Positions 10,501 to 49,838 of a stretch of DNA of 64,000 nucleotides are shown piece by piece (position 1 is the stretch's first letter; every line of letters begins with the position of its first letter). A program made the position numbers and the translations under genes. Under the pieces are notes generated by a model, which saw only the letters and a program-made list of their open reading frames with translations, did not search any database and was not told the origin of the DNA. The stretch lies in the NCBI GenBank assembly GCA_977017645.1, contig OZ360219.1, positions 211,358,001 to 211,422,000 on the forward strand, given 5' to 3'. This DNA comes from Torpedo marmorata. Lineage: Eukaryota.

Positions 10501-11400
10501 ACACCTTTTAATCTCCTCGATTATTATCAATTCTCTCAATTGATTGTAATCATTGTTTACTTCCTTAGATGTGCACCACCTATCAAAACACACAACCTTT
10601 TCATAGGCAAACTCTGTATAAGATTGGGTTGCTGATCTTTTTAGATTTCTAAACTTCTGTCTATAAGCCTCTGGAACTAACTCATAAGCCTGGAGTATAG
10701 CCTTTTTCACCGTTTCATAATCAGCAGCTTGTTCTGTGGTGAGAGTAGAATAAGCTTGCTGAGCTTTTCCTTTAATTACACTTTGTAACATAAGAGACCA
10801 TTGGTCTTGTGGCCATTTCAATTTCACAGCCACTTTCTCAAAATGTTGGAAGTACTTATCTATTTCTGCCTCCTCAAATGGAGGAACCAACCTAACTTCT
10901 CTACTAGCCAAAAACCCCTCAGCAGGATGACGAATTTGATTTTGGTGCTCTTCTTGTCTCCTCTCATTTTCCAACCTCATCTTTTCCAGCTCATATTTCC
11001 TATTTTTCTCCTCGTTCTCATATCTCTTTTGTTCTCTGTCTATCTCCATTTCTAATTTCTTTTGTTCCAATTCCCTGTTCTTTTGTTCCCTGTCTGCCTC
11101 CAATTCCCTGTTCTTTTGTTCCAATTCCAATTTCTTTATTTCCAATTGTATGTTTTCAGAAGGTTTACCCTTGGGAAACTGCTCTAACATGCTCTCCTCA
11201 AATTTTTTTTCTTTTATATAGTATTTGACTATTTTTCTCCCAATCTCTGCCTTTTTCATAGATGGTTTTACAGAAGCAATGCCCAACTCTGTTGCTATAG
11301 CCACTAACTGTTCCTTTTTCGCCTTTTTTAAAGTATCAGGTTCAGGTGATTCCAAAAAATGTTCTACATCCATTGTTGCTGGTTTTTTTGTTACACACAC
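7519..11400 (-). CDS. Gag(SCAN-like capsid, CCHC)-protease-integrase-RNase H polyprotein lacking the RT core
   Basis: CHYCRKEGHIIASC zinc knuckle; LRDTGA protease; H..H/C..C integrase zinc finger; DCVGP...SDQG...E core; then YVVGQG...LAVDASD...YSTIEKE...TDHNPL RNase H; no YxDD motif. Confidence 0.9.
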   Translation of the reverse strand: MCVTKKPATMDVEHFLESPEPDTLKKAKKEQLVAIATELGIASVKPSMKKAEIGRKIVKYYIKEKKFEESMLEQFPKGKPSENIQLEIKKLELEQKNRELEADREQKNRELEQKKLEMEIDREQKRYENEEKNRKYELEKMRLENERRQEEHQNQIRHPAEGFLASREVRLVPPFEEAEIDKYFQHFEKVAVKLKWPQDQWSLMLQSVIKGKAQQAYSTLTTEQAADYETVKKAILQAYELVPEAYRQKFRNLKRSATQSYTEFAYEKVVCFDRWCTSKEVNNDYNQLRELIIIEEIKRCVPEDIKVYLDEKEVKTWRDSAKLADGYALTHKPKWTSGRIFQKVTVDNQKQVESKFGSGVKERDEGKWKRENNSGPICHYCRKEGHIIASCPVLKKKREKDATPNACIQSEKMHNTQEGDKFTDQVKDVFKPFVTDGFVSVKAGSKQVPVKILRDTGAAQSLVLDSVLEFCEATDTGDINLIKGIGGEVESIPLHKIVLNSDLVEGPVIIGVRSELPVDGVSLLLGNDLAKGKVVPAVRMTTKPVIDKSEKDSDIYPACAITRAMSKKNVTVEKAVENNLVKGKDRDNQENLEKVELSPMLHPSTDKTPEGTDLSLSRQELIARQKDDPDLADVRDKVLSEEEIKKVPVGYYGKDGVLMRQWRPRDVPANEEWAVVQQVVIPKVYRDEIITLAHSTPLGGHLGVKKTISKIMKQFYWPSLRREVVSFCRACHTCQVVGKPNQGPPVAPLQPIPAFSEPFSRVIVDCVGPLPKTKAGNEYLLTIMCAATRFPEAIPLRNIKAKSIVKAMVKFFTLVGLPREIQSDQGSNFMSGVFQQVVDGLGVKQIVSSAYHPESQGALERFHSTLKTMIRTYCCEKEKDWDEGVHLLLFAARESVQDSLGFSPFELVFGHEVRGPLRLLKEQWINRDVHLNLLDYVSKFKDRLHRACEMAKENLKATQQKMKVWYDRKAKMRTFKPGENVLVLFPILSNPLRARFSGPYKVKSKINEVTYVIETPNHRRDTQVCHVNMIKPYFEQVPHKGTEHLPVVLVIDRGKEETDKTSFREGHGTVNSWSYVVGQGKLAPVEAKVVAISEFPVPTGKKTLRRFLGMIGYYRKFCKNFADLALPLTNLLRKKEKFVWSTGCQEAFVKLKAMLCHQPVLKSPNLEQSFSLAVDASDEAVGAVLLQKKNEEDIEHPVSYFSKKFNDHQRNYSTIEKELLALVLALQHFDVYICTAQKPLIVYTDHNPLVFLCKMKNKNRRLLNWSLILQEYNLVITHIKGRDNVIADCLSRC

Positions 11401-11479
11401 ACTAGCTTTTAATTAGCTTTACCAAAAGGAATGCCTTAAACCAAACTGGGATTCCTTCAATTACCAAGATGGATTTTGA

Positions 11480-11503: not shown

Positions 11504-11506
11504 ATT

Positions 11507-12372
11507 TGTTACAGAATCAAACCAGCAACGCCAGAAGACGCAATGCAAAAGGGGTAAAAATTGAAATTATTATTTATTAAACACAAGTAAACATATAATT
11601 TCACAACAATTAACCCCACTATAAACGTCTATAAACTCTATTCTTATCTAAAAGGTGTATGTGTGTGTGTGTAAAGCCCAGACCATTACAGTCTGTGCCC
11701 AACCCTTATGTAAAAAAAATGGAAAAAACTTTCCCCAAAAACCCCAGGTCAGTCATAAAAAAACAAGTCAGTCAAAAAAAAGATAAACAGTCTACAAATT
11801 TACTCTCTAAGTTCAGGCTTCAACTTTTCCTCTGGGTCTGGTAGAAGTACTTCTGAATGAACGTTGGAGAGAGACAAATGACTGATTATGCTTACAAATA
11901 CTTGTTTTCTTCTCTGATGACGTCCCCTTCTTGTAGGTTCATAAGGATTGCAAGTTCCAGATCCGTATATCTCTGATTTAGGCGTATGCTTGAATCTCAC
12001 AGCTAGCCTTGCTGATCTCACGCCTGTTCAACACCGAAGTTGCTTTTCTCTCAGAATTTCTCTCTGAGACAGGAGGCCATGTGCTATTCTGTCAGTCTTT
12101 CTCTGACTTTTGCACACAAAATTGGATCTGGCTGTTCTGTAGCCTTGCAACTCACAACTGTCTGCTTTGCAGAGATCTGCCCCTGCTTTTTGCAAAAGTG
12201 CAACAATGTATCTATTCCACAGTCTGTCTGTCTCTCTCTCTCTCTCTCTCTGGGTACACCAAGTCCTGGGGAAGTTAACTTTTTCAGTACCTGGCCCCAG
12301 TGTTTCCTCCAAAAGAATTCATCCTTCCTGCTGACCGTCCACAGTCCAAATGGTCAGTCATGGTCCATAACA
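11507..12372 (-). repeat. 5' LTR of Gmr1-like element
   Basis: Direct repeat of 6522-7386; followed on the minus strand by the PBS. Confidence 0.95.
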
Positions 12373-18920: not shown

Positions 18921-19316
18921 CTAATCATGTCACATCTGCACCCCCCAACCATGAACCTCACAACAAATAAAAGCAGTAGATATTGTGCTGTTGCATGGGA
19001 AATTAATTACTTTCAATTGATACATTTGGTTTTAAATCAATTAATTTTGATTAAATGTGGCTGTTTGGTTGACAGTGAAGATTTCAAAATAGCGAATGAG
19101 TTTATGTTCTATGTTCAGAAAAGTTAACGGAGAAAGCCACTGGAATTGCTGAGTACTGAGTAGATGCTCCACACTTGTGGCCGCAAGGCAATGATCTGGC
19201 CCTTTCTGTCACTCACAAAAGGATCTTGACCTAATTCTTAGTCTCGTCTCTATAGTCCTCGAGTTCCTAACCACTGGAAATAGTTTGTACATTCCAGCAG
19301 TTCCCTCAATATCCTG

Positions 19317-19888
19317 TATAGTGACTTCAATCCAACAAATAGTCACTTAGAGGCTAGGTGAGATATTTGTTCTTGACACGTTTCAATTAATTTACTAACA
19401 AGTCCAATATGTTCAAAAAACTTTATTTACACACGTGACTTGTAGCAATCTTCAATGTCTTAAATATCTTCTTTAAACAAAATATAAAGAATTCTTGATA
19501 ACGATGCTTAATAAATTCCTTTAAAAGATTCCTTTCAAAGATTCCTTTAAACGTCATTTAAATGTCTTTAAACGTTCAATGAAACGTTCAATGAAAGATA
19601 TGGTGATCTCACTCACCCTCCTCTAAGCCGCCATCTTTTTCTATTATTTTTTCCTCGATTCGCGCATACTCCAACGCGCATACTCCACCGCGCATACTGC
19701 CGTAACTTCCCAACTGCACATACTGCAATCACTTCCCCACTGTGCATGCGCCCGTTGGAACTCCCGCGCATGCGCAGAGCACTAAATAGGCCCAGCACGG
19801 CCTACTAACCTCCGCGTCTCCTCCGAAACCCGCTGAGACCATCAGAGCGCCGCGATTAAGGTAAGTAACTAAACCTACGGCTCTTACA
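19317..19888 (-). repeat. 3' LTR of BEL element
   Basis: Direct repeat of 32486-33060, several percent diverged by eye; internal GCGCATACT-type and TTCCTTT short repeats. Confidence 0.92.
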
Positions 19889-19992
19889 CCGGCCCCTAAT
19901 TATTATAATTAGACACAATGTCTTAAATAATAATTACACAATAAATTACAAATAACAATAACCATATAACATTCAAACAATATACAAATCTT

Positions 19993-21017
19993 TTTTTTAT
20001 TATTTTATTTAAACTTTTAAATCACAAAATACATAGAGTAAAATATAAAATTGTCAAAATACATGTGATATATTTTCACCCCCCCACCTCCCTCCCCTCC
20101 CTAGCCCCCCCCCTCCCCACTAATCTAATAATATAAAGTAACAGTAAAAATAAAAATAGAAAAAAGAAAAGAAAGGAAAAGATAGAGTAAGGGGAATATC
20201 ATCTATAAACTAATTCTATTACGGAGGTCAAGTTTGCCAGTATATCCGATATCTAGAGATCTTCAAATCCTTAAACCCACAGCTCTCATATATGGGCTCC
20301 AAATTTTCAAAAAGAAATGATATTTATTACATAGATTATAAGGATTTTTTTCCAGTGGTATACACGAACGAAGTTCTGCATGCCATCTTTCTAATCCTAA
20401 ATCTAAGTCAGATTTCCAAGTAATAGCAATGCATTTTTTCAAAACTGCTAAAGCAATTCGTAAAAATTCTACTTGAAACATATTTAATTTCTTTTTAATA
20501 CTAAATTTTCTAATATCTCCAAATAAAAATAACATAGGATCCATTGGAAATGTAATATTACCGGTAAATACTTTATCTAAATTTTTTTTAAATTTCAACC
20601 AAAAATCTTGAATTTTTGGACAAAACCATATAGAATGTACAAAAGAACCTTCATCATTATTACATCTAAAACATAAACCTGATAATGTCGGATTAAATTT
20701 CTTTAATTTTTTAGGTGTTAAATATAATTGATGAAAAAAATTATATTGTACTAATCTATATCTAACATTGATAATCTTCGTCATACTTAATTTACATAAT
20801 TCTTTCCAATGATTTTCATCTATTCTTACATTCAAATCTAATTCCCACTTTAATCTTGATTTATGAATTCCAAATTTAGGCATTTTCTTCTGAAACAATT
20901 TATACATTTGAGAAATAAATTTATTAACTTCTCCATTGGTGACTAATAATTCTAATTCATTTTGTCTTGGTAAAATCAAAGCATGACCTAATTTCTCAAT
21001 TTTAAAAAATAAGCTTT
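19993..21017 (-). mobile_element. 5'-truncated L1
   Basis: ORF2 C-terminus 20263-21024, 3'UTR and poly(A); flanked by tatacaaatctt at 19981-19992 and 21018-21029. Confidence 0.9.
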
Positions 21018-21030
21018 TATACAAATCTTC

Positions 21031-22390
21031 TTTTTTTTTTTTTATATAATTTTATTTAAATTTTAAAATCACAAAATACATGAATCAAAAATAGTATATT
21101 ATTCAAAATACATGTGATATATTACCTCCCCCCTCCCACCCTCCCCTCCCCAACCCCCCCAATACTATTCTAAAAAAAAAAGAATGTTAGTTATAAAGAA
21201 AAAAAAGAAAGAATTGAATAATAAAGTGAGGAGAAAACAAATTACAAGCTAATTCTATTTATATATTGGAGGTTATTTTTGCCAGCGGTACCAACTTCTA
21301 GAGAATTAATTCATACCCATAATTCTCATATATGGGCTCCAAATTTTCAAAAAGAAATGATAATTATTCCGTAAATTATATGTAATTTTTTCCAATGGTA
21401 TACAAGAACGTAATTCTGCATGTAATCTATCTAAATTCAAATCTAAATCTGATTTCCAAGTAATAGCGATACATTTCTTTGAAACCGCTAAGACAATTCG
21501 TAAAAATTCTATTTGATACATATTCAATCTATTTCTAATACTAATTTTTTTAATATCTCCAAATAAAAATAACATAGGGTCCATTGGAGCCGTAATATTA
21601 AAAATTCTATCCAAAAAATCTTTAACTTTAGACCAAAAATTTTGAATTTTTAAACATGACCATGTACAATGTACAAAAGAACCTATTTCATCCTTACATC
21701 TAAAACACATATCTGATAGTGCCGGGTTAAATTTCTTTAATTTTTTAGGTGTTAAATATAATTGATGAAAAAAATTATATTGTACTAATCTATATCTAAC
21801 ATTAATAATTTTAGTCATACTCAATTTACATAATTCTTTCCAATGTTTTTCATCTATATTAATATTTAAATCTGATTCCCAACTTAATCTTGATTTATGT
21901 AATCCTACCTTAGGCATTTTTCTCTGAAGTAATTTATACATTTGTGATATAAATGTGTTAACATTTCCATTAGTAATTAATAATTCTAATCCATCCTGTC
22001 TTGGAGTTGTTAATTGATTCCCCAATTTCTCAACTAAAAATCCTCTAACCTGATAGTAAGCCAAAATTGTATTATCCATTATTCCAAATTTTTCTTTCAA
22101 CCTAGAAAATGTAACAAATCTTCCAGCCTCAAAACAATCTTTAATCTTCTTAATTTCTTTTTGAAACCATAGTTTTAAAAATTGATTATCAATAGAAAAA
22201 GGTAACAATAAATTCTGATACAATGGCATATTCAGAGATAATGACCCTTTTCGTCCTATCTCATTGTCAAATTGAGTCCAGATTTCCAATAAATGTTTAA
22301 TAATCGGTGATTTTTTCTTTTTAACTAATAATAATTTAGAATTCCATTTATAAATAATATCTTCTTTATATCTTTCCCCTATATTATTCA
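21031..22390 (-). mobile_element. 5'-truncated L1, same subfamily as 59078-63540
   Basis: ORF2 C-terminus ending YMRIMGMN; flanked by tatacaaatcttcttttt at 21018 and 22393. Confidence 0.9.
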
Positions 22391-22886
22391 AATATACAAA
22401 TCTTCTTTTTTCTTTCTTCATAAGACCAGAGTTTACCATAACTCTGAATCAACAAAAGCCTGTAACCTGTGAAGTATACAACAACAAATAAAGTCAGTTT
22501 GTATTTATCAAAGTTCCTCCATCTCCAACAGAAGGCAGACCTTGTTAATAGGTCTATTTAGAAAACCGGTCTTAGTTTTAATTCGAACTTGACGCACAAG
22601 ACCCCTTTTGTCCTGAATAGTCTCAATAATTTTTCCAAGTAACCAGGAATTTCTTGGAGCTGAATCGTCCATAATAATTACAATGTCTCCTCAAAGTTCT
22701 TTTATCTCCAGCATCTTTGAGTTAAAACGTCGACCAGTAAACCTCAAATCTTCCTCAGAAAAAATAGATACAGTTTTTCTTTTGAATTTAACACGAGGCA
22801 CTTCTTCAGCATGTCGTTTCACTTTATTCCTTTCTTCAGCATTCCACTTCTCATCTGAAGAATTTAAACTCTTAGAACTAGAATTT

Positions 22887-25094
22887 TCGGGTGGAGTGGG
22901 AATATTTATTTGCTATTTTAGATAAATTTAATTTTGGTTCTGATTTTATTAAATGGATTAAGTTACTATATTCTTGTCCTATGGCCTCAGTTCGGTCCAA
23001 TTTACAACAATGTTTTGTCTTAATAGAGGAACCCGACAAGATTGCTTGTTAAGTCCTTTGCTTTTTGATATAGTATTAGAACCTTTAGCTGTTGCTCTTC
23101 GACATTGTAGAAAATTTAAAGGTATAACTAGAAACGGAATTGAACACAAAGTATCTCTCTATGCGGATGATTTATTGTTATTTATTTCAAACCCTGAAGT
23201 CTCTATACCAAATATATTAACCCTATTTACTCAATTTAGTCAATTTTCAGGGTATAAATTAAATCTACAAAAGAGTGAACTATTGCCCTTAAAAGGACCT
23301 TTTATTGGTTATTCTAATTTTCCGTTTAAAATAGTGAACAATCAATTCCAATACTGAGGAATAACAATTACAAAAACCATAAAAATTTACTGAAAGAAAT
23401 TTTTTGGGTATTAGTTAATAAGGTTAAATTACAATTAGCGGGTTGGTCAATTACAATGATGGGCCATATTAATTTGATTAAAATGAATATTTTGCCTAAA
23501 TTTTTATATCTTTTCTAATCTTTACCAATTTTTATTCCTAAAACCTTTTTTATTTCATTGGATTCAATTCTTTCTTCATAAATATGGCAGGGAAAATATC
23601 CACGTATAAATAAATCCCATCTTCAAAAAATTAAAAGGAATGGAGGATTATCACTTCCAGATTTTAGGTTTTATTATTGGGCGATTAATATTCGTAATTT
23701 GCTTTTGTTATTGCATTTTGATAAGTTACAGAATCGCCCATCCTGGGTGGAAATGGAATTGAAGTTTTCAAAAAAAACATCTATGTTAGCAATTTTAGGA
23801 TCCTTTTTACCATTTTCATTTGTTAGAATAACTCATAATCCGGTATTGAGATATAGGTTGAGAATATGGGCACAGTTTAGAATTTTTTAAAAATTTAATA
23901 GCTTTTCTCTGGCTAGTCATATTATAGATAATAAACCTTTTCCAGCCGTCTGTGATGGATGTAGGATTTAGGGAATGGTATGGATTGGGAATTCATAGTT
24001 TTAATGATCTTTTTATTTGAGATAGTTTTGCCACTTTCGAACAATTGGTCAATAAATTTAATCTTACTAACAGACATTTTTTTAGATACTTACAAATTAG
24101 ACATTTTGTTCAGTCTAAGATTTCAGATTTTCCTCGAATTTTAAGTTCTAATTTTTCTCGATTTACTTTTTAATATACGGTTCTTTTTCAACGTCGATTA
24201 ACATCATGTATATATAATAATTTATTGGTACCGGTAATTAGAGTAGCTTCTATGACGGGGATCAAGAATGAATGGGAATGTGATTTGAATGTTACATTTT
24301 CAGATCAAGATTGGTACAATGCTCTTGATCTAATTAACGCCTCATCTTTTTGTGCTAGATACTGTTTATTACAATTTAAAGTGGTGCATAGAATTCATAT
24401 GTCTAAACTTAAACTATCACATATTTACTCTGTCATAGATCCATTGTGTGAGAGATGTAAAATTTTTGAAGTTTCATATGTTTTGGGAATGCCCCAATTT
24501 GGAGAGATTTTGGAAGGACATTTTTAAATCTTTATCATTGATTTTTAAGATTAATATTGAACCATGTCCTATAATTGCTCTGTTTGGTTTTTCACGTGAA
24601 CTTAACATACCTTTGTCAGCATCACAGGAAAAAGTTTTAGTTTTTTCCACATTGATTGCCAGACGGGCAATTTTATTGAAATGGAAAGATGAGTTATCAC
24701 CGACAGATAGACAATGGTTACTAGATGTAATGTCCTTTCTGAGTTTGGAGAAAAATTAGATATAATATTAAAGATAGAAAGTTTCAATTTTTAAAGATCT
24801 GGGGGCCATTCATTGAATATTATCATGATTGGAAGAATTAATAAAACTGACTATCCCGGGGACTCTGTCCGATGCTTGGAGGTCGCTACAGGATCCATAT
24901 CCATTTTTTACAATATCAAGGTAACCTTACTTAGAGGGAGGGGTTAGAATTGATTAGTTATTAGTGTGTTTTTTTTTTACTTAGTATACATGTATGAATA
25001 CCAGCTGATTTTTTGAATGTTTTTCTTAATCTTGTTACTCTGTATACATGTTTATTATTGAAACTCAATAAAAATATTTTAAAAAAAAAGAAAT
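22887..25094 (+). mobile_element. Older 5'-truncated L1 of a different family inserted into the BEL ORF
   Basis: EWEYLF..., RGTRQDCLLSP, SLYADD; AATAAA and A tail at ~25067-25089; degenerate TSD aactagaattt (22876-22886) / aactaaaattt (25095-25105). Confidence 0.85.
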
Positions 25095-28000
25095 AACTAA
25101 AATTTGAATATTTATCTGATCCTCTCGATTTTAATAAACGAGTTTCATTAACCATTCTGGTTTCTATTGCCTTTTCCTGCAATTCCAAATCCAATTTTGA
25201 AACTTTCAACTCAGTCTCAGTTCCTTCCGAGAAATTAATAACTTGATCTGAAGTGAAAATATCATGGGATACATTGGTATTTCTATTGTCAACTCTGCTG
25301 TGGTAAACTTGAAATTTTTTAATTTCTTCATCTTGCTTGTTACATTTCTGCAATGCAATATCACTTTCTTTCTGCATTGTTAGTAGCTGAACATTCAATT
25401 TACATTCTTGATTGTTTTCTATAATCAACTGTTTTGTGTTATTAACCAATAACTTGTTATCTTTCAAAATATTAATCTCTTCCTCCAACCTTTTACATTT
25501 TGATAATGCTGAATCTCTTTCCTCAATAACTGTATTTATTTCTTCAGCAGTTATTCTTTTCTTCCGCTTTCTGACTTTGCAAATTTTACTTACAATTAAA
25601 TCTTTCTGTTTACTGTTTTCATGATTATCTAATATTTCCAATTCCCCTTTCAACATTTTGTTCTCTGAATTCAATAGCATTAAATTATCATTCACATTCT
25701 TCTTTATTCCATCAGCACAATTTCCTGTGTTCTCCAATTTTACATCACATTGTAACATTTCTTCAATGACTTTGTCTGTTGTAACCTCTGAACTACAAAA
25801 TCTACTTTCAGATTTGTTCTCAGTCACTTGTTTTATTCCTGTATCTGATTCAATTACACATGAATAATCACTTGTATTATTTGTAACATCTTCTAGTACT
25901 TCATTTTTATCCATTTCTGATGAACATAATTCCTTCAATGTTGTTTTAAATACCCTTGATTTATTTTCACATTGATCTGTTTTATTTTCTTCAAAAGTGA
26001 CTTTCTTATTCACAGTCTTTTGCTCTTCTCTTAACTCATCAACTTTCACAACCAATATCCTGTTAATATTTATCGCTAACTGTTCCTGAGCAATATCATT
26101 ATTTCTTTCCAATGGTGCATTGATTGTCCAACCAAGCTTGGTTCTGACAACGTAAGGTCCATTCCCTCTACTCCGTATTACATCTAGTGGTTCCAAAACC
26201 TTTGGCACATCTGAACCAATCAGCATTTCTATTTCAAAATTAACTTCAGGTAGACAAACATTTTTTCAGATAAGACCACCGTTTAATATAATTTTGATGA
26301 GGAATATTTCCTTTATGCACAGGCAATGTCTTCTGAGTATATAAACTTGGAAGATCACAAAATTTTTTATCATCCAATCCAACAACATCTAAGCCTGAAA
26401 CAATGCTGGTTTCTATGACCTTTTCTTGTCCCATGGTTTTCAACATAATTCTTGACCTTCTTCCTTGAATATTAAATTTGTTCATTAGTCCTTCCGTGCA
26501 AAAACATGCAGTGCTGCCTGGGTCAAAAAATGCATATGTATGTACTGTTGCATCCCCTTTCTTGGTCTTGACTTGTACAGGCACTATTGAACCGAGGTAA
26601 TAACATTGTTTTCTGTTTACTCCTTTTCCAATTCCTTGTTTCTTTGATGGATATGCAACATTCTAGGATGTTTCAAATTGCATATGTTACAATTAGTTTG
26701 CTTCTCGCAGTTCTTACTGATGTACCCTTTACACAGACAGCTAAAACATATTCCATTTTCCTTTAAGAAAGCGATCTTCTCATTATGTTCCTTCTTTTCC
26801 AACCGTAAACTAATTCCCAAAGCATGTCCACCTTTACAGAACAAACAACTCTTCTCATCAGGCAAACTTTCCTTTTCCTTATTTACTTTGTCCTTTTCTT
26901 TATTTATAACTGACACATTAGTCGCAAAAGTACTCATTTTCAATTTCGGACTAGGCTGTGAGTTAGACCTCCTTACATCTTTGCCCATTGAATTGTCTCT
27001 GGTATTTCCATATATTGGATCTGTTTCAATGTACACCTATCATTCAAGAAAATTTACCGTCCTTTAAATTAGCTCTTCGACTGTAATTTTCTTGTATATC
27101 ACAAGCCAAATTTCTCCATCTATCCCACAACTTGTAAGGTAATTTTTCTAAGATGATTCGCATATTACCAGGCACTTCAAGCTCACGAATATTATCGATA
27201 TCTTCCATGGCATTACAACATCCTCTTAAAAATAGAGTATATACTTGTAGAGCCTTTACATCATTCTGTTTTATTGATGTCCATTTAAGAGCTTTATCCA
27301 TATAAGCTAAAGCAATTCGATGCTTGTTGCCAAAATGTTGTTCTAGTAAAAGCCTTAGCTCTGTCTAATCCTCTTTCTGAAGACATATGTTGACAACTCT
27401 TTACAAGTTCTTTTGGATATCCTTCTGTAAACATTTCCAAATAATAAAAACAGTCTTCAGGGCCTTGGAATTTATTTTCAATATTGCATTTGAAAGATCT
27501 CATAAATAATTGGTACTGAAGTGGATCACCATCAAAAGTTTGTATCTCTTTCTTGGGTAAAGAAGAGAGAGACTGTAACTGAATCAATGATGCAGCAATT
27601 TCATTTTGTCTTCCCTTGGATGACAATACATTGCTCTGATCACCATCTCTTGTTACAGGTAATGTATCTGGAAACCTCACTGGTGTAGTTTCTCCCATAT
27701 TTCTGATGCTTGACTCAAATGACAAGGGAGCTGCATCGTTCGACCGAACCCAAGCCACAGCTTTGTCTTCAGATATTACCACTGGTACATGTGACTCGAT
27801 ACCACTATGCTATTGAAGGATTTGTCCTTGTATTTGCAAGTCTTGTACCCCTGTTGTTAAAATATCTACTCTTTTGGTTGGTTTCTTTTCCTGTGACTTT
27901 TTTATTAAATATGACCTTTTATTATCAGATACTTTAGATAATTTACTTCGAGCACCAGATACCATTGAGCCTTCTATTGCTTCCTTTTTTGCCTTGGCAA

Positions 28001-28678
28001 TAGTAATGTTTGCTTTCAGCTCCTGCAGCTCCTTTCTCTGCCTTAGCTGCTCCTTCTCTTGCCTTAGCTGCTCCTTTAGCTGCTCCTCCTGTCGTTCTAA
28101 AATTTGTTTATCCTTAAGCGTCTTTTTGTTGTGCAAGAAGAGCGGCCAAGTTAACTTCAATCTTTGTACGTGATGATGCAGAACTTGAAGTATGAGAAAC
28201 TCTGGAGCTTGAACCAGAACTTTGTTTGCTTCTCCTGCTTTCAGCATTTGAGACACTGTCACTTGCTTGTATTTCGTCCTGCAGGTCAGATGTTGTCTTC
28301 TTACTTACCCTCTTCACCAATTTGAATTGTACATCCTTTGTGTTGTGTATTTCGGGGTGTAAGCTTACAATAACACACCGAGACGACTGTCTTCATTCAT
28401 CCTTTATTACTAAACTAAAATGGTATTCAGCGTTACCCCTTATATAGTACGTATGACGTCATTACGTCATACGTTATACGTTACATATACAACACTCTTC
28501 CCCCCCCCACGAAATATAGATTGTTATTATATGATTATATATTCCCCGATCACTGGTAAACTATTGTAACTACTGGAATATAGCGGGGAAACTACAACTA
28601 TAAACAAAAATCATGCAAGTAAAACTAGAACTACTAACTGTTAGTATCATACTGATCATCACTAAAGTGAAAAATCAT

Positions 28679-30700
28679 TTAAGGTACATAGTCTCTCAAA
28701 TGTTCTGGTGGACGTCGTTGACGATGTGATCTTCTTAGGGGTGGATCCCCTACAGCCGTCGAAACCAATGGACTCTTTGCCTTTTTGGGACTCTTTGCCT
28801 TTTCTGGACTCTTTGCCTTTTCTGGACTCTTTGCCTTTTCTGGACTCTTTGCCTTTTCTGCTGTAATATCTTCTTCGAAATGGAAACTGGAATCTGGAGT
28901 CTGTCTTTCTAGATCAGCATCATCGTCATTAACCAAAAATGGCAAATTCTTCAGCTCATCTGTGCAAGAAACTGGATCTTCCACAGCTCTCAGCTGGTCA
29001 ATATGTCGTTTCCATATGTTAGAGTCTACTTGTATTGCATATGAGCAAGGGCTTAGCTTCTTAATGATAACACCTCTTACCCATGTTTCTTTATTATTTC
29101 TGTAATCTCTTACCAACACTCTTTCACCCACTTCCAGAGATCGTGTTGGTTTAGTTGGTGAGGTGTCGTATTCAATACGACCGCTGATATCCGGATGCAC
29201 TGCGGATAGCCTCGTTCGAATATTCCTACCAAACATTAATTCTGCTGGCGTTCTTTTAGTTGTTGAATGCGGTGTATTTCTGTATCCTGCCAGGAAATTT
29301 GCTATTCTATGATTCCATGACAAGTTAAGCAATTTTCCTGCTTTCATTGCGTTTTTAAATGTTCGCACAAAACGTTCCGCTTCTCCATTAGTACTCGGGT
29401 GGTACGGTGCTGAAAGTACATGGCGTATACCATTCTTACGCATGAACATTTTAAATACATCTGAAGTAAACTGAGGACCATTGTCTGATACTAATTCCAC
29501 TGGTGATCCAAATGATGCAAACATAGTTCTTAATTTTTCAATTGTTTGGAGGGTTGTTGTGGTACGCATATGTGAAACTACTAGCCATTTGGAATGTGCG
29601 TCGACCACAATCAAGAAATTCTCCCCCATAAATGGACCTGCAAAATCAACATGAATTCTATGCCATGGTCGAGATGGCCATTTCCATGGATTTGCCTCGG
29701 CCTGGGGAGCTTTAGGTTGCATGTCTTGACAAATGCCACACCTTCGTACAGTTTGCTCAATATCCATATCCATTGATGGCCACCAAACATGCATTCGGGC
29801 TAGCGCTTTCATGCGGACTATTCCCGGATGGTTATCATGCAGTTCTGCCAATATGTCTTTTTGCCATTTCCTGGGAATAATAGTCCTGGCCCCCCATAAT
29901 AAACAACTTTGTTCAATAGTTATTTCATTTCGTTGGATGTAGTAAGGTTTAAGTTCTGCAGAAATAGTGTCCCCTTCTGGCCATCCATTTAATGTAAAAT
30001 ATAAAACCTTGGCCAGTGTTGGTTCATTTCTTACTTCTTTACTGATTATTTTGGCTGTGATGGGCAGATGGCGAAGCTGTTCTTGATTAATAGCTGTGGC
30101 CTCTGATGTCCATTGAACTATCTCTTCTGTTTGACCCGTCTCCGGCAGAGGTAGGCGTGACAAGGCATCAGCATGTCCATTTTGTGTTGCTGGTTTATGT
30201 TTCAACTCATAATCGTAAGCGGCAAGCATTATTGCCCATCTCTGGATTCTGGTTGCTGCCAATACTGGGATGCCTTTTTTAGATCCCAAAATAAAACTGA
30301 GTGGTTTGTTGTCCATTACTAATGTGAATTTCCTTCCATATAAATACTGGTGGAATCTTTTGATTCCGAATACTATGGCCAATCCTTCTTTTTCTAACTG
30401 TGCATAATTTCGTTCACAAGCTGTCAAAGATCGAGATGCATACGCCACTGGTTGCTCTCCCTCTTTTTCTAATCTATTAAGTTCTGCGTCAATTTTTCCT
30501 TTTATCGCAAACGGTACTGTCCTTGGTTTATAAAACTTTGGTTCCGCCTCTGGTTTCAATTTCAATTGTGCCTCCACTCCTTTGATTTTCCCCAGACCTT
30601 TATTAAATAATGTCTGATACTTCTTTAGCACTTGTGATAACTTTGATTCATCTCCTGATTGAACCTTTAGCACTGATCCAATCTCCATCCAATCTAATGG
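28679..30700 (-). CDS. Truncated Pol: partial RNase H + intact integrase + KSP-repeat tail (start uncertain)
   Basis: ELNRLEKEG joins directly to EQPVAYASRSL; HPGIVRMK, HVDFAGP, VSDNGPQF, NGEAERFV integrase motifs. Confidence 0.85.
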   Translation of the reverse strand, partial: PLDWMEIGSVLKVQSGDESKLSQVLKKYQTLFNKGLGKIKGVEAQLKLKPEAEPKFYKPRTVPFAIKGKIDAELNRLEKEGEQPVAYASRSLTACERNYAQLEKEGLAIVFGIKRFHQYLYGRKFTLVMDNKPLSFILGSKKGIPVLAATRIQRWAIMLAAYDYELKHKPATQNGHADALSRLPLPETGQTEEIVQWTSEATAINQEQLRHLPITAKIISKEVRNEPTLAKVLYFTLNGWPEGDTISAELKPYYIQRNEITIEQSCLLWGARTIIPRKWQKDILAELHDNHPGIVRMKALARMHVWWPSMDMDIEQTVRRCGICQDMQPKAPQAEANPWKWPSRPWHRIHVDFAGPFMGENFLIVVDAHSKWLVVSHMRTTTTLQTIEKLRTMFASFGSPVELVSDNGPQFTSDVFKMFMRKNGIRHVLSAPYHPSTNGEAERFVRTFKNAMKAGKLLNLSWNHRIANFLAGYRNTPHSTTKRTPAELMFGRNIRTRLSAVHPDISGRIEYDTSPTKPTRSLEVGERVLVRDYRNNKETWVRGVIIKKLSPCSYAIQVDSNIWKRHIDQLRAVEDPVSCTDELKNLPFLVNDDDADLERQTPDSSFHFEEDITAEKAKSPEKAKSPEKAKSPEKAKSPKKAKSPLVSTAVGDPPLRRSHRQRRPPEHLRDYVP
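28769..28860 (-). repeat. 18-bp tandem repeat encoding (EKAKSP)x5
   Basis: (tggactctttgccttttc)n on the + strand. Confidence 0.95.
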
Positions 30701-31418
30701 ATTTCTGTTTGTTACTTTTCTGGTACAGCAATTTTCTGCTTGGACATCTAGTTTTGATATGTCCTTCTTTATCACAATAATGGCATTTGGCCTTTCTAAA
30801 GTAACAACTGTCAGGGCTGTGGTTGCTTTTTCCGCAGCGAAAGCACTGTGGTTTACCAGGTTTGTTAACATATCCTACTGTTGAGGCTTCTCCCTGTATG
30901 ATATCAATATTTTTCCCAGCCATTTCGAAACTTAATGCTGTAGCATAAGCAGTGGCAATATTTAAATCTGGTTTACTCAGCAATCGTTGTTGGGTGGTAC
31001 GGTCAGCTAGACCCATCACTAACTTGTCTCTTAATGCATCATTTAAGAATTCACCAAAGTCACAACGTTCTGATAACTGACGTAGTTCAGCCAAATATTC
31101 GCTTATTGGCTCGCTTATTATTTGTTTTCTAGAGTAAAACTTATAACGCTCTGCAATAATTACAGGTCTTGGACATAGGTGTTCTCCTATTACTGTGCAT
31201 AGTTCATCATAAGTTTTAGTACTTGGTCTCTCAGGTGCCAACAGAGACTTCATAAGTTTAAAAGTTTTACTTCCCACTTCACTTAAGAATAAAGCTGTTT
31301 TTCTGCTTGTTACTGGTGTATCAACTACATTGTGGGCAACACAGTACATATTGAATCTTTCAATGTAGTCATACCAGTCTTCTGAGTCTTTGAACTCTCC
31401 GAAACGGCTGTCGGCCAT
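30648..31418 (-). CDS. Gag with two CCHC zinc knuckles
   Basis: DWYDYIERF...AERYKFYSRKQ...LRDKLVMG; CFRCGKSNH and CHYCDKEGHIKTRC. Confidence 0.88.
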   Translation of the reverse strand: MADSRFGEFKDSEDWYDYIERFNMYCVAHNVVDTPVTSRKTALFLSEVGSKTFKLMKSLLAPERPSTKTYDELCTVIGEHLCPRPVIIAERYKFYSRKQIISEPISEYLAELRQLSERCDFGEFLNDALRDKLVMGLADRTTQQRLLSKPDLNIATAYATALSFEMAGKNIDIIQGEASTVGYVNKPGKPQCFRCGKSNHSPDSCYFRKAKCHYCDKEGHIKTRCPSRKLLYQKSNKQKSIRLDGDWISAKGSIRR

Positions 31419-32485
31419 TTTGAGTTGTTTTCCCGCGTTTTTCTTCTTTCTTCTTTCTTCTTTGTAAGTGAGCTTATGGAGCTCACTGTTTCTTTCTTCT
31501 TTCTTCTTTTCTTCCCCTCCCTTTCCTTGTTAGTGAGGTCCGTTTTTATCCTCGTCGCCAATCTGTTGTGTATTTCGGGGTGTAAGCTTACAATAACACA
31601 CCGAGACGACTGTCTTCATTCATCCTTTATTACTAAACTAAAATGGTATTCAGCGTTACCCCTTATATAGTACGTATGACGTCATTACGTCATACGTTAT
31701 ACGTTACATATACAACACTCTGCATCTTCATCCTCTTAATTTTCTTCATCCTCTTCATTTTCTTCATCATTTGGTGACACAATTTCAGCCATTTCCTTGC
31801 TATTTTCTTGTTCATCTAACGAAACCGTATCTTCCTTTGCCAGCTTCAGTCTTGCGATGAGAACCCTTTTATTTCCACTTATATCTAGTTTCATTCGCTT
31901 CAATTCTTCTTTAATATCCGCAACCTTCATGTCTTCAATACGTTGGTCCTTAACAGCAACATCAACGATTGCCGCGTCAGCTGCCGATACATCAGTAGCT
32001 GCTGCATCAGTGGCTGCTGCGGCCATTTTACTCGTCTTGTTCCACTGTCCTTCAAGCATACACAACACTAGCCAAATCAGCAGTCCCCAATGGACTAGCG
32101 GCAGCAAATCCAATCTGTGTTCTAACTTGCCAAAGATACACAGAAAAAGTCCACATACTTATGCCTACCACTTCAGATGACTGTAATGTGCTACTATTCA
32201 CAAATGAGTTTCAACCACAACATCCATCAATAATATCGCTGATTTTCCAAAAATGGTTTCTCCAACGTATTTATAGTACACTTTACTATAAGATTTGAAG
32301 CTTTAAATGACTCTCTACCTGTTACACATGGCAGATGGATGTGGATTACAAACTGCCCCCAACTCGACGCATCTCCAAGATGGCCGCCATTTTATTTTAA
32401 ATATCAGTCCAAAGCTCAGAGAGATTATTCTATCTTCTTTCCTTCAATTTTCTGTTCCATACAATAACTCTTTCATTGACTAAAA

Positions 32486-33060
32486 TATAGTGACTTCAAT
32501 CCAACAAATAGTCACTTGGATGCTAGGTAAGAATCCTTGTTCTTGACGCATTTCAATTAATTTACTAACAAGTCCAATATGTTCAAAAAACTTTTTTCAC
32601 ACACGTGACTTGTAGCAATCTTCAATGACTTAAATAACTTCTTTATACGAAATATAAAGAATTCTTGATAACGATGCTTAATAAATTCCTTTAGACGATT
32701 CCTTTCAAAGATTCCTTTAAACGTCATTTAAATGTCTTTAAACGTTAAATGAAATGTTCAATGAAAGATATGGTGATCTCACTCACCCGCCATCTTTTTC
32801 TATTCTTTTTTCCCCGATTCGTTCATGCTCACTGCGCATATTTCACCGTGCATACTCCACCGCGCATACTGCCGTAACTTCCCAACTGCGCATACTCCAG
32901 TCACTTCCCCACTGTGCATGCGCCCGTCGACACTCCCGCACATGCGCAGAGCACTAAATAGGCCCAGCACGCCCTACTAACCTCCGCGTCTCCTCCGAAA
33001 CCCGCTGAGACCATCGGAGCGCCGCGATTAAGGTAAGTAACTAAACCTAATGCTCTTAGA
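32486..33060 (-). repeat. 5' LTR of BEL element
   Basis: Direct repeat of 19317-19888. Confidence 0.92.
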
Positions 33061-33139
33061 TCCTGAATACCTCAATCAAATCACCCTGAACACTTTAAAT
33101 TCCACTGTCTACAACTCTGGTCTGTGATTTCTACTTGAA

Positions 33140-37602: not shown

Positions 37603-40600
37603 TGATAGGCCTATCAATAAGCACTCAAAAGACTGAGTGGGAACGAACCATAGGCTTTTATTATCATTAAACACAGCTACAGTCGACCTGCAGATCTGAT
37701 CCCGGACTGTGGGCGGGACGGTGGCACAATGGCCTTTATTCAGGTGAGGAAGGGGGAGGGATTACCGGACACCCAGGGGAGGGGGAGGAGACACCGGGAC
37801 AGACCGCAGGACATACTCATACTACACAATATACCTAAACAATGGTTTACCACATTCACCCCTCCTTTTTAAAAGAGTCCAGTGGGGTGACGTGACCACA
37901 GTGACAATTTTACAGAAAACAGATATTTACATGCAATTTTACAGGTCAAGGCGATCCGGTGGTCTGATTCGCCGCTGCGACCTGCGCAGTCCTTGTGGTG
38001 ACGGGGCGGGTTGTGGTGATGGGGGAGATGGCAGGATTGTCTGTGAGGTCGCCTCCTGCCTGGCTTCTTGGAGTGTATTTGGTCCCGGCGAGGGTGCTGG
38101 GTCTGACGTGCTGGAAGGGGGATTGGGGAGGGGTTGCAGCAAGTGGTCTTGCCCGTCGGGAGTTCTTCCGGTGCTCCAGCGTGCGCCAGGTCACGAATTG
38201 ACACCGTGTCCTCTCGCCCATCAGGGAAGACCACGTAGGCATACTGCGGGTTAGCGTGCGCTAACTGCACCCTCTGGACCGTCGGCTCATATTTGCTGCT
38301 CCGAAGGTGGTTGCGGAGCAGCACTGGTCCCGGGGACGTCAGCCAGGCAGGTAGGGTGGTTCCGGTGTTCGACTTCCTGGGGAAGGAGAAAAGTCGTTCG
38401 TGAGGGGTTGCATTTGTGGACGTGCACAGCAGGGACCGGATAGAGTGGAGGGCTTCGGGGAGGACATCTTGCCAGCGGGAGACTGGCAGTCCCCTGGACT
38501 TGAGAGCCAGGAGCGCGGCCTTCCAGACAGTAGCGTTCTCCCTTTCCACCTGTCCATTTCCCCGGGGGTTGTACCCTGTGGTCCTACTAGTGGCGATGCC
38601 TCGGGTCAGTAGGTACTGTCGCAGCTCCTCACTCATAAAAGCTGATCCCCGGTCGCTATGTATATAGTTCGGGAAACCTAACAGCGTAAATACCTGGCGA
38701 AGAGCTTTTATGGTTGAGGTAGCCGAAGTGTCGGGACAGGGGATGGCAAAGGGGAACCGCGAGTACTCATCAATAATATTCAGAAAGTACACATTGCGGT
38801 TCGTGGAGGGAAGGGGGCCCTTGAAGTCAATGCTGAGACGTTCAAAAGGGCGGGTGGCTTTGACCAGCTGTGCCTTGTCGGGGCGGTAGAACTGAGGTTT
38901 GCACTCCGCGCAAACCCACAACTGCTGATCATTGTCCTGACCTCTTCCAGGGAGTATGGCAGGTTCCGTGACTTAACGAAATGAAAGAGCCTGGTAACTC
39001 CTGGGTGGCAGAGGTAGTCATGTAGGGCGCATAATCAGTCGATCTGCGCGCTGGCGCATGATCCCCGGGATAGAGCATCGGAGGGCTCATTGAGCTTCCC
39101 GGGCCGGTAAAGGATGTCGTAATTGTAGGTGGAGAGTTCTATTCTCCACCTCATGATCTTGTCATTTTTGATCTTACCCCACTGCTGATTGTTGAACATA
39201 AACGCCACCGAGCGTTGATCTGTCAGCAGGGTAAAATGCTTACCGGCGAGATAGTGCCTCCAGTGCCTGATGGCTTCCACTATGGCCTGGGCTTCCTTCT
39301 CCACCGCGGAGTGCCGAATTTCGGGGCCTTGGAGGGTCCGTGAGAAAAACGCCACCGGCCTTCCCGCCTGGTTGAGGGTAGCAGCCAGCGCGAAGTCCGA
39401 TGCGTCGCTCTCTACCTGAAAAGGTGTCTCTTCATCCACCGCGTGCATTGTTGCTCGTGCAATGTCCCCTTTTATAAGGTCAAACGCCTTACGCCCCTCC
39501 GAAGCAAGGGGAAATGTGGTGGATTTCACAAGGGGTCGGGCCTTATCCGCATAATTGGGAACCCACTGTGCATAGTATGAGAAGAACCCGAGGCATCGTT
39601 TAAGGGCTTAAGGGGTGGAGGGAAGTGGAAGTTCCAGCAGGGGCCGCATGCGGTCGGGGTCGGGTCCAATCACCCCGTTCTCTACCACATACCCCAAAAT
39701 AGCAAGGCGAGTGGTACCAAACATGCATTTATCTTTATTATACGTGAGGTTTAATGCTTTGGCCGCCTGCAGGAACCTCCGGAGGTTGTTGTCGTGGTCC
39801 TGACGATCATGACCACAGATGGTAATGTCATCCAGGTATGGAAAAGTGGCCTTGAGTTTATAGTGATCCACAATCCTGTCCATCTCCCGCTGGAATACTG
39901 ACACACCATTAGTGACCCCGAAAGGAACACGCAGGAAATGGAACAGCCTGCCATCCGCCTCGAACGCAGTGTATGGGCGGTCCTCCCTTCGGATAGGGAG
40001 CTGGTGGTATGCCGATTTTAGGTCTATCGTTGAGAAAAACCTATACTGGGCAATTTGATTTACTATATCCGCTATTCGTGGTAGCGGATATGCGTCCAGC
40101 TGCGTGAATCGGTTGATGGTTTGGCTGTAGTCCACCACCATCCTACTCTTGGCCCCTTTTACTACGACTACCTGGGCTCTCCAGGGGCTATTACTTCTCT
40201 CAATAATCCCCTCCTGTAATAACCGCTGCACCTCCGTCTTGATAAACGCCCTGTCCCCCGCACTGTATCGCCTGCTCTTGGTTGCCACAGGCTTACAGTC
40301 AGGGGTCAGGTTGGCGAATAGCGACGGGGGCGAGATCTTAAGGGTGGAGAGGCCACAGGTAGTCTGGGGCATGTTGTTCAGGAACTGGTGGTTCGCTACA
40401 GTGATCGCAGGGTGGGGACCGTCATACCGCATCGTGACACTCCGTAAGTGGCTCTGAAAGTCAAGACCCAGTAATACCGGCGCACATAAACGATTCATAA
40501 TAAATAAGGAGAATTGCCGATACTCTGTCCCTTGTACCACAATATTCGCCACACAAGCCCCCCGGATGTCTGTTGTGTGTGACCCAGACGCCATGGCCAC

Positions 40601-42102
40601 CCTCTGGCTTACCGGTATGGTAGTCAGGCCACAGCGCTGAACAGTGTCTGGGTGAATAAAACTCTCCGTGCTGCCAGTATCAAAAAGACAAGTGGTTTTG
40701 TGCCCCTCCACCAGGATGTCCATCATGGATCGCGACAGCTGGTGGGGAACACTCTGGTCGAGGGTGACTGATGCTAAGGTCGGGATGTAGTCATCTTGAT
40801 CCGCAGTTGTTAAAGATGGCTGCTCCCGTGGGTTGCACATGTCGCTGCCGCTCGCACTGCAAGATGGCGGCGGTGGAAGTGCCGGAAGTACCGACGTAGG
40901 GCTATAAGATGGTGGCGCCGGAAGTGCCAGCATCAAAGATGGCCGCCTCCACTCTTCGCACGAGGTCGACGCCGGAAGTGAAAGCAGGTAAGATGGCCGC
41001 TCCCGCATCTCGCACGCAGCGCTACTCGGACCCGCGCATGACTTGGAGCGGCAGGCCTTCGCATAATGGCCTTTCTTGCCGCAGCTGGAGCAAGTCGCGT
41101 CACGGGCCGGGCAGCGTTTCCTTTGGTGCTTGTCGAGCCCACAGAAGTAGCACTTCTCGGGCTCGCAGTTAACAGCTGCGGCGGTGAGAATAGCGGCGGT
41201 AGCGATCGGGTCGCGGCAAACGGCGGCGGCAGTCAGATCGCTGGCAGGGCTAGGGGACGGGGCTGACCACGTTGCAGGCTGGGGGTCGCGCGCCTGCATG
41301 GCGTCCGAGTTCCGCAGCGCGGCCTCCAGCATGTGGGCCATTGAGACAGCAGTACGGAGGTTCAGGTCGGCGTGCTCCAGCAGCCTCTGGCGCACGTATA
41401 CCGACCTGATCCCCATGATAAACGTGTCCCTCTCCAGCAATTCGACGTTTTCCTCAGCAGTCAGCGCCTTACAGTCGCACGCTCGTACCAGCGACTGTAT
41501 GTCCCTGACAAACTCCACGATCGACTCCCCGGCCCGCTGTTTTCGCGTAGAAAGTCGGTACCTCGCGTAGACCGCGTTAACAGGCGTCACGTAGATTCTC
41601 TTCAGCGCATCCATCGCCTCCGTGTAGGTTTTACAGTCCCGAACTGTCGAGAATAACCGAGGGCTTACCCTGGACACGAGGACCCTTAGTTTCTGCTCCT
41701 CGCTTTCCGCTTTGATCGTCATCATAAAGGACTCGAGACAGTGTAGCCAGTGTTCAAAAGAGTTACCGGCATCAGGAGCTAGATGATCGATGTCCAGTCG
41801 GTCCGGTCTTAGAGTGCTCTCCATCAGATTTTAAATGATAATAAAATTGATAGGCCTATCAATAAGCACTCAAAAGACTATGAGTGGGAACGAACCATAG
41901 GCTTTTATTATCATTAAACACAGCTACAGTCAACCTGCAGATCTGATCCCGGACTGTGGGCGGGACGGTGGCACAATGGCCTTTATTCAGGTGAGGAAGG
42001 GGGAGGGATTACCGGGACACCCAGGGGAGGGGGAGGAGACACCGGGACAGACCGCAGGACATACTCATACTACACAATATACCTAAACAGTGGTTTACCA
42101 CA
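37603..42102 (-). mobile_element. GC-rich Ty3/Gypsy LTR retrotransposon, nearly complete (gag-PR-RT-RH-IN with frameshifts)
   Basis: LTRs 37603-37854 and 41848-42102; exact TSD GTTAT; PPT AAAAGGAGGGGTGAA; LFDTGS, YPLP, DLKSAYHQ, YLDD, ESDASD and SIDFKGP/SDRG motifs. Confidence 0.95.
37869..41824 (-). pseudogene. Gag-Pol of the third Gypsy, split into 39608-41824, 39035-39529 and 37869-38921
   Basis: Domains are collinear across frameshifts near 39608, 39035 and 38925; these could be real or consensus errors. Confidence 0.88.
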
Positions 42103-47917: not shown

Positions 47918-48969
47918 TGGCAATGCAAGGGCCTCACATCGAGGAATCAAGTCTGCTTCAGGCAACTTCAGATTGGGAACTGCACTTAAGTGAATGGGAA
48001 CATTTTCAGGAATAATGATGAAGGTGGGGGTGGGGGTGGGGGGGGGCTCAGAGTCCACTGCAATTTCAGGGCCTTGTGAGCAGCCCCTGTAATTTTCCTT
48101 AGTAGAACTATCTGATAGAATTTCATAGGGAGGTTAGGAATTAAATTTTGCAACGTAATTCACCATACAGGTAAGTGCCAGTACAATTTTGTGAAGCCGT
48201 GCAAGGATGCTGTTTCCCTGGATCTGTGTGTTGCATGCCCTAATACAGATGGTGTAGCACTTAAAGCACAAGTACTAAATGGAATTTCTAACCCATTAAG
48301 CTTTCATCTTCAATTACTGTCAATAGTATATTTGAAATGCATAAAATATTGGTCAACAAGTAAGAGAGAAAAATAATTGATGTTCAGGTTAAAATTCCAT
48401 TAGTCCTCGGTTCTAAGATTTTATTCTCCCTGGCATCAGGTCAGTATTTAACCCTGAATCAATATCAATAAAATAGATTGATTGGGCTTGATCACTTTGC
48501 TATTCATGGCACCTTCTATTTGCAAGATACCTGCTGTGTTTTCAAGAATGTAACATTGGTTACAATTGAATAATTAGAATGATTCCCAATCATTTCTGTT
48601 TTATGGTGTAAATTAGTCAAAGATAATTTTTAAAGAAATTTTCACCAAATAAAAACATAGAACAGTAAAATCTGTAAACACAATGTTGGAGAAACTCAGC
48701 AGGTCAACCATTGTCCTTTATATAGCAAAGGTAAAAATACATGACCGACGTTTTGGGCTTCTGTGGAAAGGGACCAAAATTTCAGAGTGATGACCTTTTA
48801 TCAGGATTGACTTCTCTCTATACACATGCTATCTGACATGCTGAATTTTGAGCATTTTCTGTGTTTTATTGAATTAATTAAATTATGGAAATTGAACTAT
48901 ATCTGTAAATGTTTGTGAAACAAATAATTATGTATGCCTACACATAAATCTCTTTCTTTGTTTAAACAG

Positions 48970-49838
48970 GAAATATATTTGTTGTCAGCCTGGCCATTGC
49001 AGATCTTGTTGTGGCAATTTATCCATATCCAATGGTCTTGACATCAATATTTCATAATGGCTGGAACCTGGGTTATCTGCATTGCCAAATCAGTGGTTTC
49101 CTGATGGGTTTAAGTGTGATTGGATCAATTTTTAACATCACCGGCATCGCCATCAATCGATATTGCTACATCTGTCACAGTCTGAAGTATGACAAGCTCT
49201 ACAGTGACAAAAATTCTCTGTGCTTTGTGATCCTCATCTGGGCTCTGACGTTTATAGCAATCGTCCCAAATTTGTTCGTGGAATCTTTACAATACGATCC
49301 AAGAGTCTACTCATGCACTTTTGTGCAATCAGTGAGCTCTGCCTACACAGTATCAGTGGTGTTTTTTCACTTCATTCTTCCCATCTCCATTGTCACCTTC
49401 TGCTACCTGAGAATATGGGTCCTTGTCATCCAGGTGAGAAGACGAGTGAAGCCGGACGTGAGAGCCAAACTGAAGCCTCATGATCTGCGAAACTTTGTGA
49501 CCATGTTTGCAGTCTTTGTGCTCTTTGCTGTATGTTGGGCACCCCTTAATATTATTGGCCTCGCAGTCGCTGTGAATCCAGATACAATTGCGCCAAGAAT
49601 TCCAGAATGGCTATTTGTTGCCAGTTACTTCATGGCATATTTCAACAGCTGCCTTAACGCGATCATCTATGGACTTTTGAACCAGAATTTCAGGAGGGAG
49701 TACAAGAGGATTATTATCTCAGTTTGCACTGCAAGGATTTTCTTCCTTGAGAGTTCTAATGATGCTCCAGACAGAATTAAAAGTAAACCTTCTCCCGTAA
49801 TGACAAATAATAATCAAGTCAAGGTAGATTCAGTCTGA
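48970..49838 (+). CDS. MTNR1A: Melatonin receptor type 1A (Mel1a), coding exon 2 (TM2-TM7 and C-terminus)
   Basis: Polypyrimidine tract and acceptor tttaaacag at 48961-48969; exon reads (G)[20 protein letters not shown]; melatonin-receptor signatures [15 protein letters not shown] and NAIIY; Mel1a-type end [17 protein letters not shown]. The ORF-track GTG start at 49011 is not the real start. Confidence 0.96.

Follow-up and report, generated by a model that had tools for sequence, protein, structure and literature searches.

A clade of BEL/Pao LTR retrotransposons in the genome of Torpedo marmorata begins its Gag protein with a SAP domain that, judged by its sequence, almost certainly originated from the host gene SLTM. 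One copy lies on the minus strand of the 64,000-nucleotide stretch that we analyzed (the window), and an earlier note on this DNA had proposed that its SAP was an SLTM/SAFB-like module taken from the host. The peptide read from ATG 32026 on the minus strand agreed with the translation, and the motif was recovered by Pfam as PF02037 with an E value of 5.2e-10 (39.1 bits against a cutoff of 23.9). Host capture was confirmed, with SLTM as the donor via a spliced mRNA and not SAFB, but the capture cannot be credited to this element itself, since the SAP belongs to the whole BEL clade, autonomous copies included.

The window element is a non-autonomous BEL/Pao LTR element at 19317..33060, encoding a SAP-Gag, a protease, a coiled-coil insert, and an integrase C terminus and split by later insertions; all of its parts lie on the minus strand. 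It is flanked by a perfect 5-nt target duplication, CAGGA (33061-33065 and 19312-19316), and its 5' LTR (32486..33060) and 3' LTR (19317..19888) are 90% identical. ATG 32026, 460 nt inward of the 5' LTR, opens an Ala-rich N terminus (31940..32026) that is diverged and lengthened in the window's family and that we infer, via the intermediate copies L157 and L158, to be the start of SLTM exon 1; in sister-family copies, the host 5' UTR, ATG, and Ala run are matched at the DNA level. The 33-codon SAP core (31841..31939), also assigned to SLTM exon 1, is followed by 15 nt that stem from the beginning of SLTM exon 2, the apparent trace of a splice junction (31826..31840), and by an acidic linker (31722..31825) that has a repeat unit of 18 nt and includes a stop at 31736-31738. 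A young nested Gypsy element (28341..31717) comes next, with LTRs (31564-31717 and 28341-28494) identical over 154 nt and a target duplication of 5 nt whose copies differ at one position (CAGAG/CAAAG); it contains gag, RNase H, and integrase domains, and no protease or reverse transcriptase (RT) match was found in it. The remainder of BEL Gag and the protease (26020..28340) carries a DSVSN motif, a coiled coil, a DUF1759 capsid, and zinc knuckles, interrupted by stops and frameshifts; it is 84% identical in DNA to an autonomous copy, and DUF1759 was found in sister copies. The coiled-coil insert of the non-autonomous family (25095..26020) replaces most of pol, with the same join in 17 of 20 sister copies, and an integrase C-terminal remnant lies at 22377..22886. 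Against an autonomous relative, the window element gave no match to RT, RNase H, or the integrase core. An exact target-duplication 5-mer was present at most 6 nt from the LTR ends in 17 of 24 BEL/Pao copies.

Several other features were seen alongside this element. The best atlas match of the coiled-coil insert was MIPOL1 (0.96, 162 of 256 features), although among the ten best family matches just 3 agreed; the insert may be another host capture, one confined to the window's family. The earlier note had called the SAP the second captured host module of this element; the first, this insert, is a MIPOL1-like lead only. About 50 to 76 nt from the 5' ends of both window LTRs (near 32985-33009 and 19813-19837), a 27-nt stretch is 85% like the SLTM 5' UTR (E value, 0.003); it was not found in the LTRs of copies L082 or L085. 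A partial solo LTR at 53824-54145 is 77 to 82% identical to that of the BEL element, and in copy L005 (2260-2832) the acidic linker has grown in frame to some 30 tandem copies of its 18-nt unit. Elsewhere, the window holds a Gypsy-type open reading frame (ORF) with a SCAN domain (7519-11412, minus strand; LTR pair near 6519-7026 and 11504-12012), whose order of integrase ahead of RNase H we take to be typical of Gmr1-like elements; a second Gypsy-type element, which is broken and has a gag match of PNMA-like type (37869-41830, minus strand); and an intronless rhodopsin-family GPCR ORF (48966-49838, plus strand; 7tm_1 E value, 1e-43).

The SAP was confirmed to be in frame with BEL Gag by other copies, in which nothing has to be joined. 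None of 29 other copies carries the nested Gypsy element at this site, and in 15 of them the frame stays open from the ATG across the SAP to the DSVSN motif of Gag; two are borderline, and the rest have stops or frameshifts of their own. For the window copy, the earlier note had claimed a frame continuous with gag apart from a single TAA. The stop at 31736-31738 is indeed present and the junction is in frame, and by arithmetic the frame beyond the nested Gypsy is that of the SAP, but it stays open for only 73 codons before closing at 28116, and gag and protease are broken by additional stops and frameshifts; the claim is therefore valid for the junction only. The window copy is a dead, non-autonomous descendant that inherited the SAP-Gag fusion.

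The same domain was found in relatives with a complete coding capacity. In the window's family (A, non-autonomous), 17 of 20 sister copies fetched consist of an LTR, SAP-Gag, protease, coiled-coil insert, integrase C terminus, and LTR, with no RT. Autonomous copies were sampled from at least 150 loci with RNase H (PF05380), of which 20 with long frames or the highest scores were taken, and 17 of these 20 carry the SAP, which is window-like in 15 (family B) and more diverged in two (family E); three were unreadable to the 5' end. These relatives have the usual BEL/Pao layout of DUF1759 Gag, protease, RT, Peptidase_A17, and integrase in one ORF, and in one of them, P0003, PF02037 scored 27.5 bits (cutoff, 23.9). 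Seven copies have a single ORF of 2018 to 2134 codons with the SAP at the start and all BEL domains, and since their LTRs are 97 to 100% identical, the SAP-bearing lineage has moved recently. The earlier note had held that a grouping of the SAP with those of autonomous BEL elements would speak against host origin; the SAP does group with them, yet host origin stands, because those SAPs also descend from SLTM.

Among 1.84 billion proteins, the window SAP gave mostly multi-SAP matches, and its five single-domain matches were SLTM-type N termini, one of them named SLTM. A search of the genome with the SLTM protein led to a third BEL family (C), with a SAP 76 to 84% identical to marsupial SLTM; among the best 120 of 415 database matches to the family C SAP, all were SLTM or unnamed or hypothetical SAP proteins, most with an RRM and none with BEL domains, and the top matches were ray SLTMs at 88 to 90%. 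The host SLTM gene was found in this genome on contig C68, with the end of exon 1 at L141:3130 and an intron 1 of 1,184 nt (3131-4314, GT..AG) directly ahead of exon 2. Family C was 84 to 90% identical in DNA to SLTM exon 1 and the UTR in 19 of 20 copies (two of the 20 over the SAP part alone). The host match starts sharply 38 nt 5' of the ATG and stops short of the promoter GC boxes, and in the nine copies shown the sequence upstream of the captured piece is unrelated to these boxes. In all 20 SLTM-like copies, the match runs on into the opening 15 nt of exon 2 (15/15 in 17 copies, 14 in two, and 12 in one), with a likeness to intron 1 of only 4 to 6 of 15; the window copy matched 10 of 15 for exon 2 versus 5 of 15 for intron 1. 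Thus, exon 2 was reached and intron 1 skipped in all 20 copies, showing that a spliced SLTM mRNA was captured. The 20 copies had been chosen by protein likeness to SLTM, which cannot yield identity in the UTR and at synonymous sites, so this choice does not explain the result. Additionally, one contig of run X8, which we guess to be RNA, contained the captured piece followed by host exon 2, as expected of a spliced SLTM transcript.

The families form a graded series. Over the 99-nt core, nucleotide identity to SLTM was 92 for family C, 80 for family D, 69 for family A, 66 for family B, and 57 for family E, and the window copy itself matched the host at 70 of 99 nt and 22 of 33 amino acids. In a SAP phylogeny with both SLTM and SAFB, the element SAPs formed a ladder from SLTM with SAFB outside, and the nodes joining families A, B, D, and E had 98 to 99% bootstrap support. 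By these comparisons, the window SAP is a derived form at the end of a series that starts from SLTM. That the domain is instead an old transposon-borne SAP, or one derived from SAFB, and resembles SLTM by convergence seems extremely improbable. SAPs are known from Zisupton and one Penelope-like element (PMC8557442), and the derived copies have Asn at core position 23 in common with SAFB. However, every group is nearer SLTM than SAFB (57 to 92 versus 46 to 61 of 99 nt; mean for the window's family, 69 versus 52), which argues against SAFB as the donor, and the DNA identity to SLTM spans the 5' UTR, synonymous sites, and the junction of exons 1 and 2, which refutes both versions for families A to D. 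A second donor is unlikely for family E, the most diverged at 57 of 99 nt. The residues Arg-Cys ahead of the SAP core are common to family C and four named ray and skate SLTMs, and five sharks and one chimaera have Arg-Arg; capture in the ray lineage is likely on this ground.

The SAP was probably gained once, near the base of the BEL clade, a conclusion with moderate support from the phylogeny. In a FastTree of Gag-protease, 19 copies from this genome formed one clade (SH, 0.82) among 30 database proteins that lack the SAP. Neither PF02037 nor a profile built from four element SAPs (best E value, 0.75) was found in the best 120 of 278 database relatives of Gag-protease, and 93 of these 120 have at least 100 residues of a different region ahead of the shared DSVSN motif. 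A short stretch after the SAP is weakly like the N-terminal region of the relatives (pairwise E values, 5e-5 to 0.016), so the replacement of the old region may be partial. One query with the ancestral N-terminal region of P0004 did not find it in this genome (37 candidates scored), a word-based protein search with the family B N terminus, a weak test, gave no match, and an atlas search with the same N terminus returned just a generic SAP cluster (0.75).

These observations suggest how the fusion may have arisen. The reverse transcriptase would have switched template onto a co-packaged SLTM mRNA near the 5' end of that mRNA and switched back after 15 to 16 nt of exon 2, taking about 38 nt of 5' UTR and all of coding exon 1. 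The captured piece would have replaced most of the N-terminal region seen in Gag of the relatives, and Gag would have gained a start codon and a SAP.

The SAP core has apparently been maintained since then. Residue counts and dN/dS were based on 82 of 86 copies, as L002, L097, L100, and L132 have a frameshift in the core and were left out. The dN/dS of the core was 0.14 between families C and B (natural copies, pairwise counts) and 0.18 to 0.48 against the host, values that are lowered by the loss of CpG after capture (from 6.1 to 2.2 per 100 nt), which inflates synonymous change, and that come from only 33 codons. The comparison of the window copy with SLTM also indicated purifying selection (Fisher P = 0.0016). 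In four pairwise comparisons, pN/pS ranged from 0.32 to 0.54 for the SAP core, from 0.37 to 0.57 for the capsid, and from 0.6 to 1.2 for the linker and spacer. These ratios point to purifying selection on the core that is about as strong as on the capsid and stronger than on the linker. Such constraint, with ten core positions kept in at least 90% of the 82 copies across five groups, speaks against the SAP being a mere passenger, that is, a folded spacer tolerated after a capture whose only benefit lay in the 5' UTR and start codon supplied by a housekeeping gene. We regard this explanation as unlikely, but some findings agree with it, one of them within the domain itself. When SAP residues were mapped onto SAFB2 by spacing, the arginine equivalent to R45 was replaced by Met, Leu, or Ile in 42 of 42 copies of families A and B, and loss of R45 unfolds the SAFB2 domain (PMC9958909). 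The same paper describes K53 and S54 as needed for DNA binding; 81 of 82 copies retain the lysine equivalent to K53, and the S54 equivalent is Arg or Lys in families A and B. The element SAP is predicted to have the helix-loop-helix SAP fold: the model has helices at 35-44 and 53-74, with a pLDDT of 83 to 84 over residues 31 to 60, and it superimposed on the solved SAPs 1zrj, 2kvu, and 2do1 with an rmsd of 0.5 to 0.9, yet all fold matches had E values above 0.001.

Another finding that agrees with a passenger SAP is a subfamily (e.g., L191-L210) in which the SAP has been removed by an in-frame 147-nt deletion and which spread with the SLTM 5' UTR, ATG, and Ala run still in frame. Thus, the SAP has been dispensable in cis at least once. 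The SAP-deleted junction gave 231 pattern matches versus 31 for the intact family C junction, although the patterns differ and the numbers are no strict ratio. In none of 20 SAP-deleted copies did the stretch fetched include gag as well as RT, RNase H, and integrase; 4 had a complete RT and 2 a complete integrase core. These copies were perhaps supplied with Gag in trans. LTR pairs, found in 7 of the 20, were 84 to 92% identical, so the SAP-deleted branch looks old, while SAP-bearing pairs reach 100%, which again counts against a passenger.

The remaining finding on that side comes from the insertion sites. The earlier note had suggested that the SAP might tether Gag to AT-rich chromatin, and this gained no support: on the local scale, the flanks of 24 insertions had an AT content of 0.596 over 50 nt, compared with 0.597 in 20 background stretches (P = 0.94), and of 0.601 over 200 nt, compared with 0.596 (P = 0.67). 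These flanks give no support for an element targeted to AT-rich (S/MAR) DNA. What we favor, on balance and by analogy, is that the captured SAP gives chromatin docking of Gag without base-composition targeting. The SAP would let Gag bind double-stranded DNA, and many weak contacts per capsid would sum to docking of the particle or of the cDNA-integrase complex. The p12 protein of MLV is an analogous Gag-borne chromatin tether, virus derived and with a tested function. The proposal draws on the SAP of SAFB2, which binds only double-stranded DNA, with micromolar affinity and a slight AT preference (PMC9958909); many such domains on one capsid would act together, as is proposed for the chromatin-binding signal of foamy virus Gag. 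Binding of double-stranded DNA only and the absence of a target-site bias would also fit if the SAP bound not host chromatin but the element's own cDNA or LTR ends in the particle, for condensation, protection, or help to integrase. This seems improbable, as the SAP is at the extreme N terminus, about 300 residues ahead of the capsid domain, and N-terminal extensions of LTR-element capsids usually point outward.

The identity of the donor raises one more explanation beside chromatin docking, namely, that Gag, which is abundant, acts through its SAP as a competitor or poison of the SAFB/SLTM repressors of transposon RNA. SAFB1, SAFB2, and SLTM bind L1 RNA, and their loss raises expression of L1 and, in mouse cells, of LTR/ERV elements (PMC10901741); the SAFB2 SAP may partly dimerize (PMC9958909). 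The clade is also very abundant: families A and B matched 14,155 of the 200,000 bases that were sampled as 20 stretches at arbitrary places, a rough figure, since the matches come from only 4 stretches. Against this explanation, the capture did not include the RRM and ER-rich region of SLTM, the SAP, unlike a mimic, has drifted from its source (in family B, about 20 of 33 residues), and repression by the SLTM family is known from mammalian cells, not cartilaginous fish; we consider it a poor candidate. As the donor family represses L1 and LTR elements in mammalian cells, the theft from a repressor is directly testable. A speculative possibility is that the front end of Gag, taken from the transposon repressor SLTM, acted as a tether or decoy, and that the clade thereby came to make up several percent of this 6.2-Gb ray genome. 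As to numbers, a first look gave 29,045 candidate SAP matches in the genome, which is not a copy number, and family B-type contigs were present at high depth also in runs under two other organism codes. SAP matches of equal score with open frames of 292 or 216 codons were seen on small contigs (C23, C24, C154, C184, C187, C237, C566, C651, C782, C1158, and others) and are perhaps a tandemly amplified copy. Annotation of SAP and SLTM in this lineage is swamped by such transposon copies.

Most accessory domains in transposon proteins are of such age that their donors can no longer be traced. Here, one genome contains the donor gene and its splice junction, the two breakpoints, a graded series of divergence, and a natural deletion subfamily, so that one can trace stepwise how a Gag domain was gained, tuned, and lost. 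Host mRNA capture by LTR elements and SAPs in transposons are known already, and an SLTM piece as the start of BEL Gag appears to be unreported. In a literature search whose scope lay outside Repbase, Dfam, subscription journals, and supplements, we found no report that BEL Gag carries a SAP or a part of SLTM, and the term SAP is absent from the main text of a BEL/Pao survey (PMC3118150).

The closest relatives, the fish BEL/Pao elements (Belpaoviridae; P0004-P0123), likewise have a single Gag-Pol ORF with DUF1759, RT, Peptidase_A17, integrase, and DUF5641; they are 42 to 61% identical to the SAP-bearing clade over Gag-protease and have the DSVSN motif in common with it, but they begin with another N-terminal region, with no SAP in the best 120 of 278. 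Members of the SLTM/SAFB family have the SAP at the N terminus as well, and 31 to 32 of 33 residues are identical in the closest element copies, whereas the derived families keep about 14 to 23 of 33, and the elements lack the RRM and ER-rich region. Zisupton DNA transposons and the Penelope-like elements Chlamys-1_pPol also use a SAP as an accessory DNA-binding domain, but these belong to other transposon classes, and the part of PMC8557442 that deals with them names no donor gene, whereas in the BEL clade donor, splice junction, and breakpoints are visible. As a Gag-borne chromatin tether, the foamy virus signal is the working analogy, although it is a virus-derived motif with a tested function (PMC7828637), and the SAP is a host domain with a putative one. 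Extra ORFs have been described in rotifer LTR elements (PMC5408684), and host mRNAs have been captured by the crocodilian endogenous retroviruses CrocERV29 (KIT ligand) and CrocERV31 (nectin3) (PMC4299795). In those retroviruses, too, a spliced host mRNA entered an LTR element, was amplified, and came under purifying selection. However, the crocodilian captures stand as ORFs of their own, which lie between pol and env or replace them, in single lineages (PMC4299795), whereas the BEL elements took only the first exon and its junction, fused them in frame as the start of Gag, and kept a full pol in some copies.
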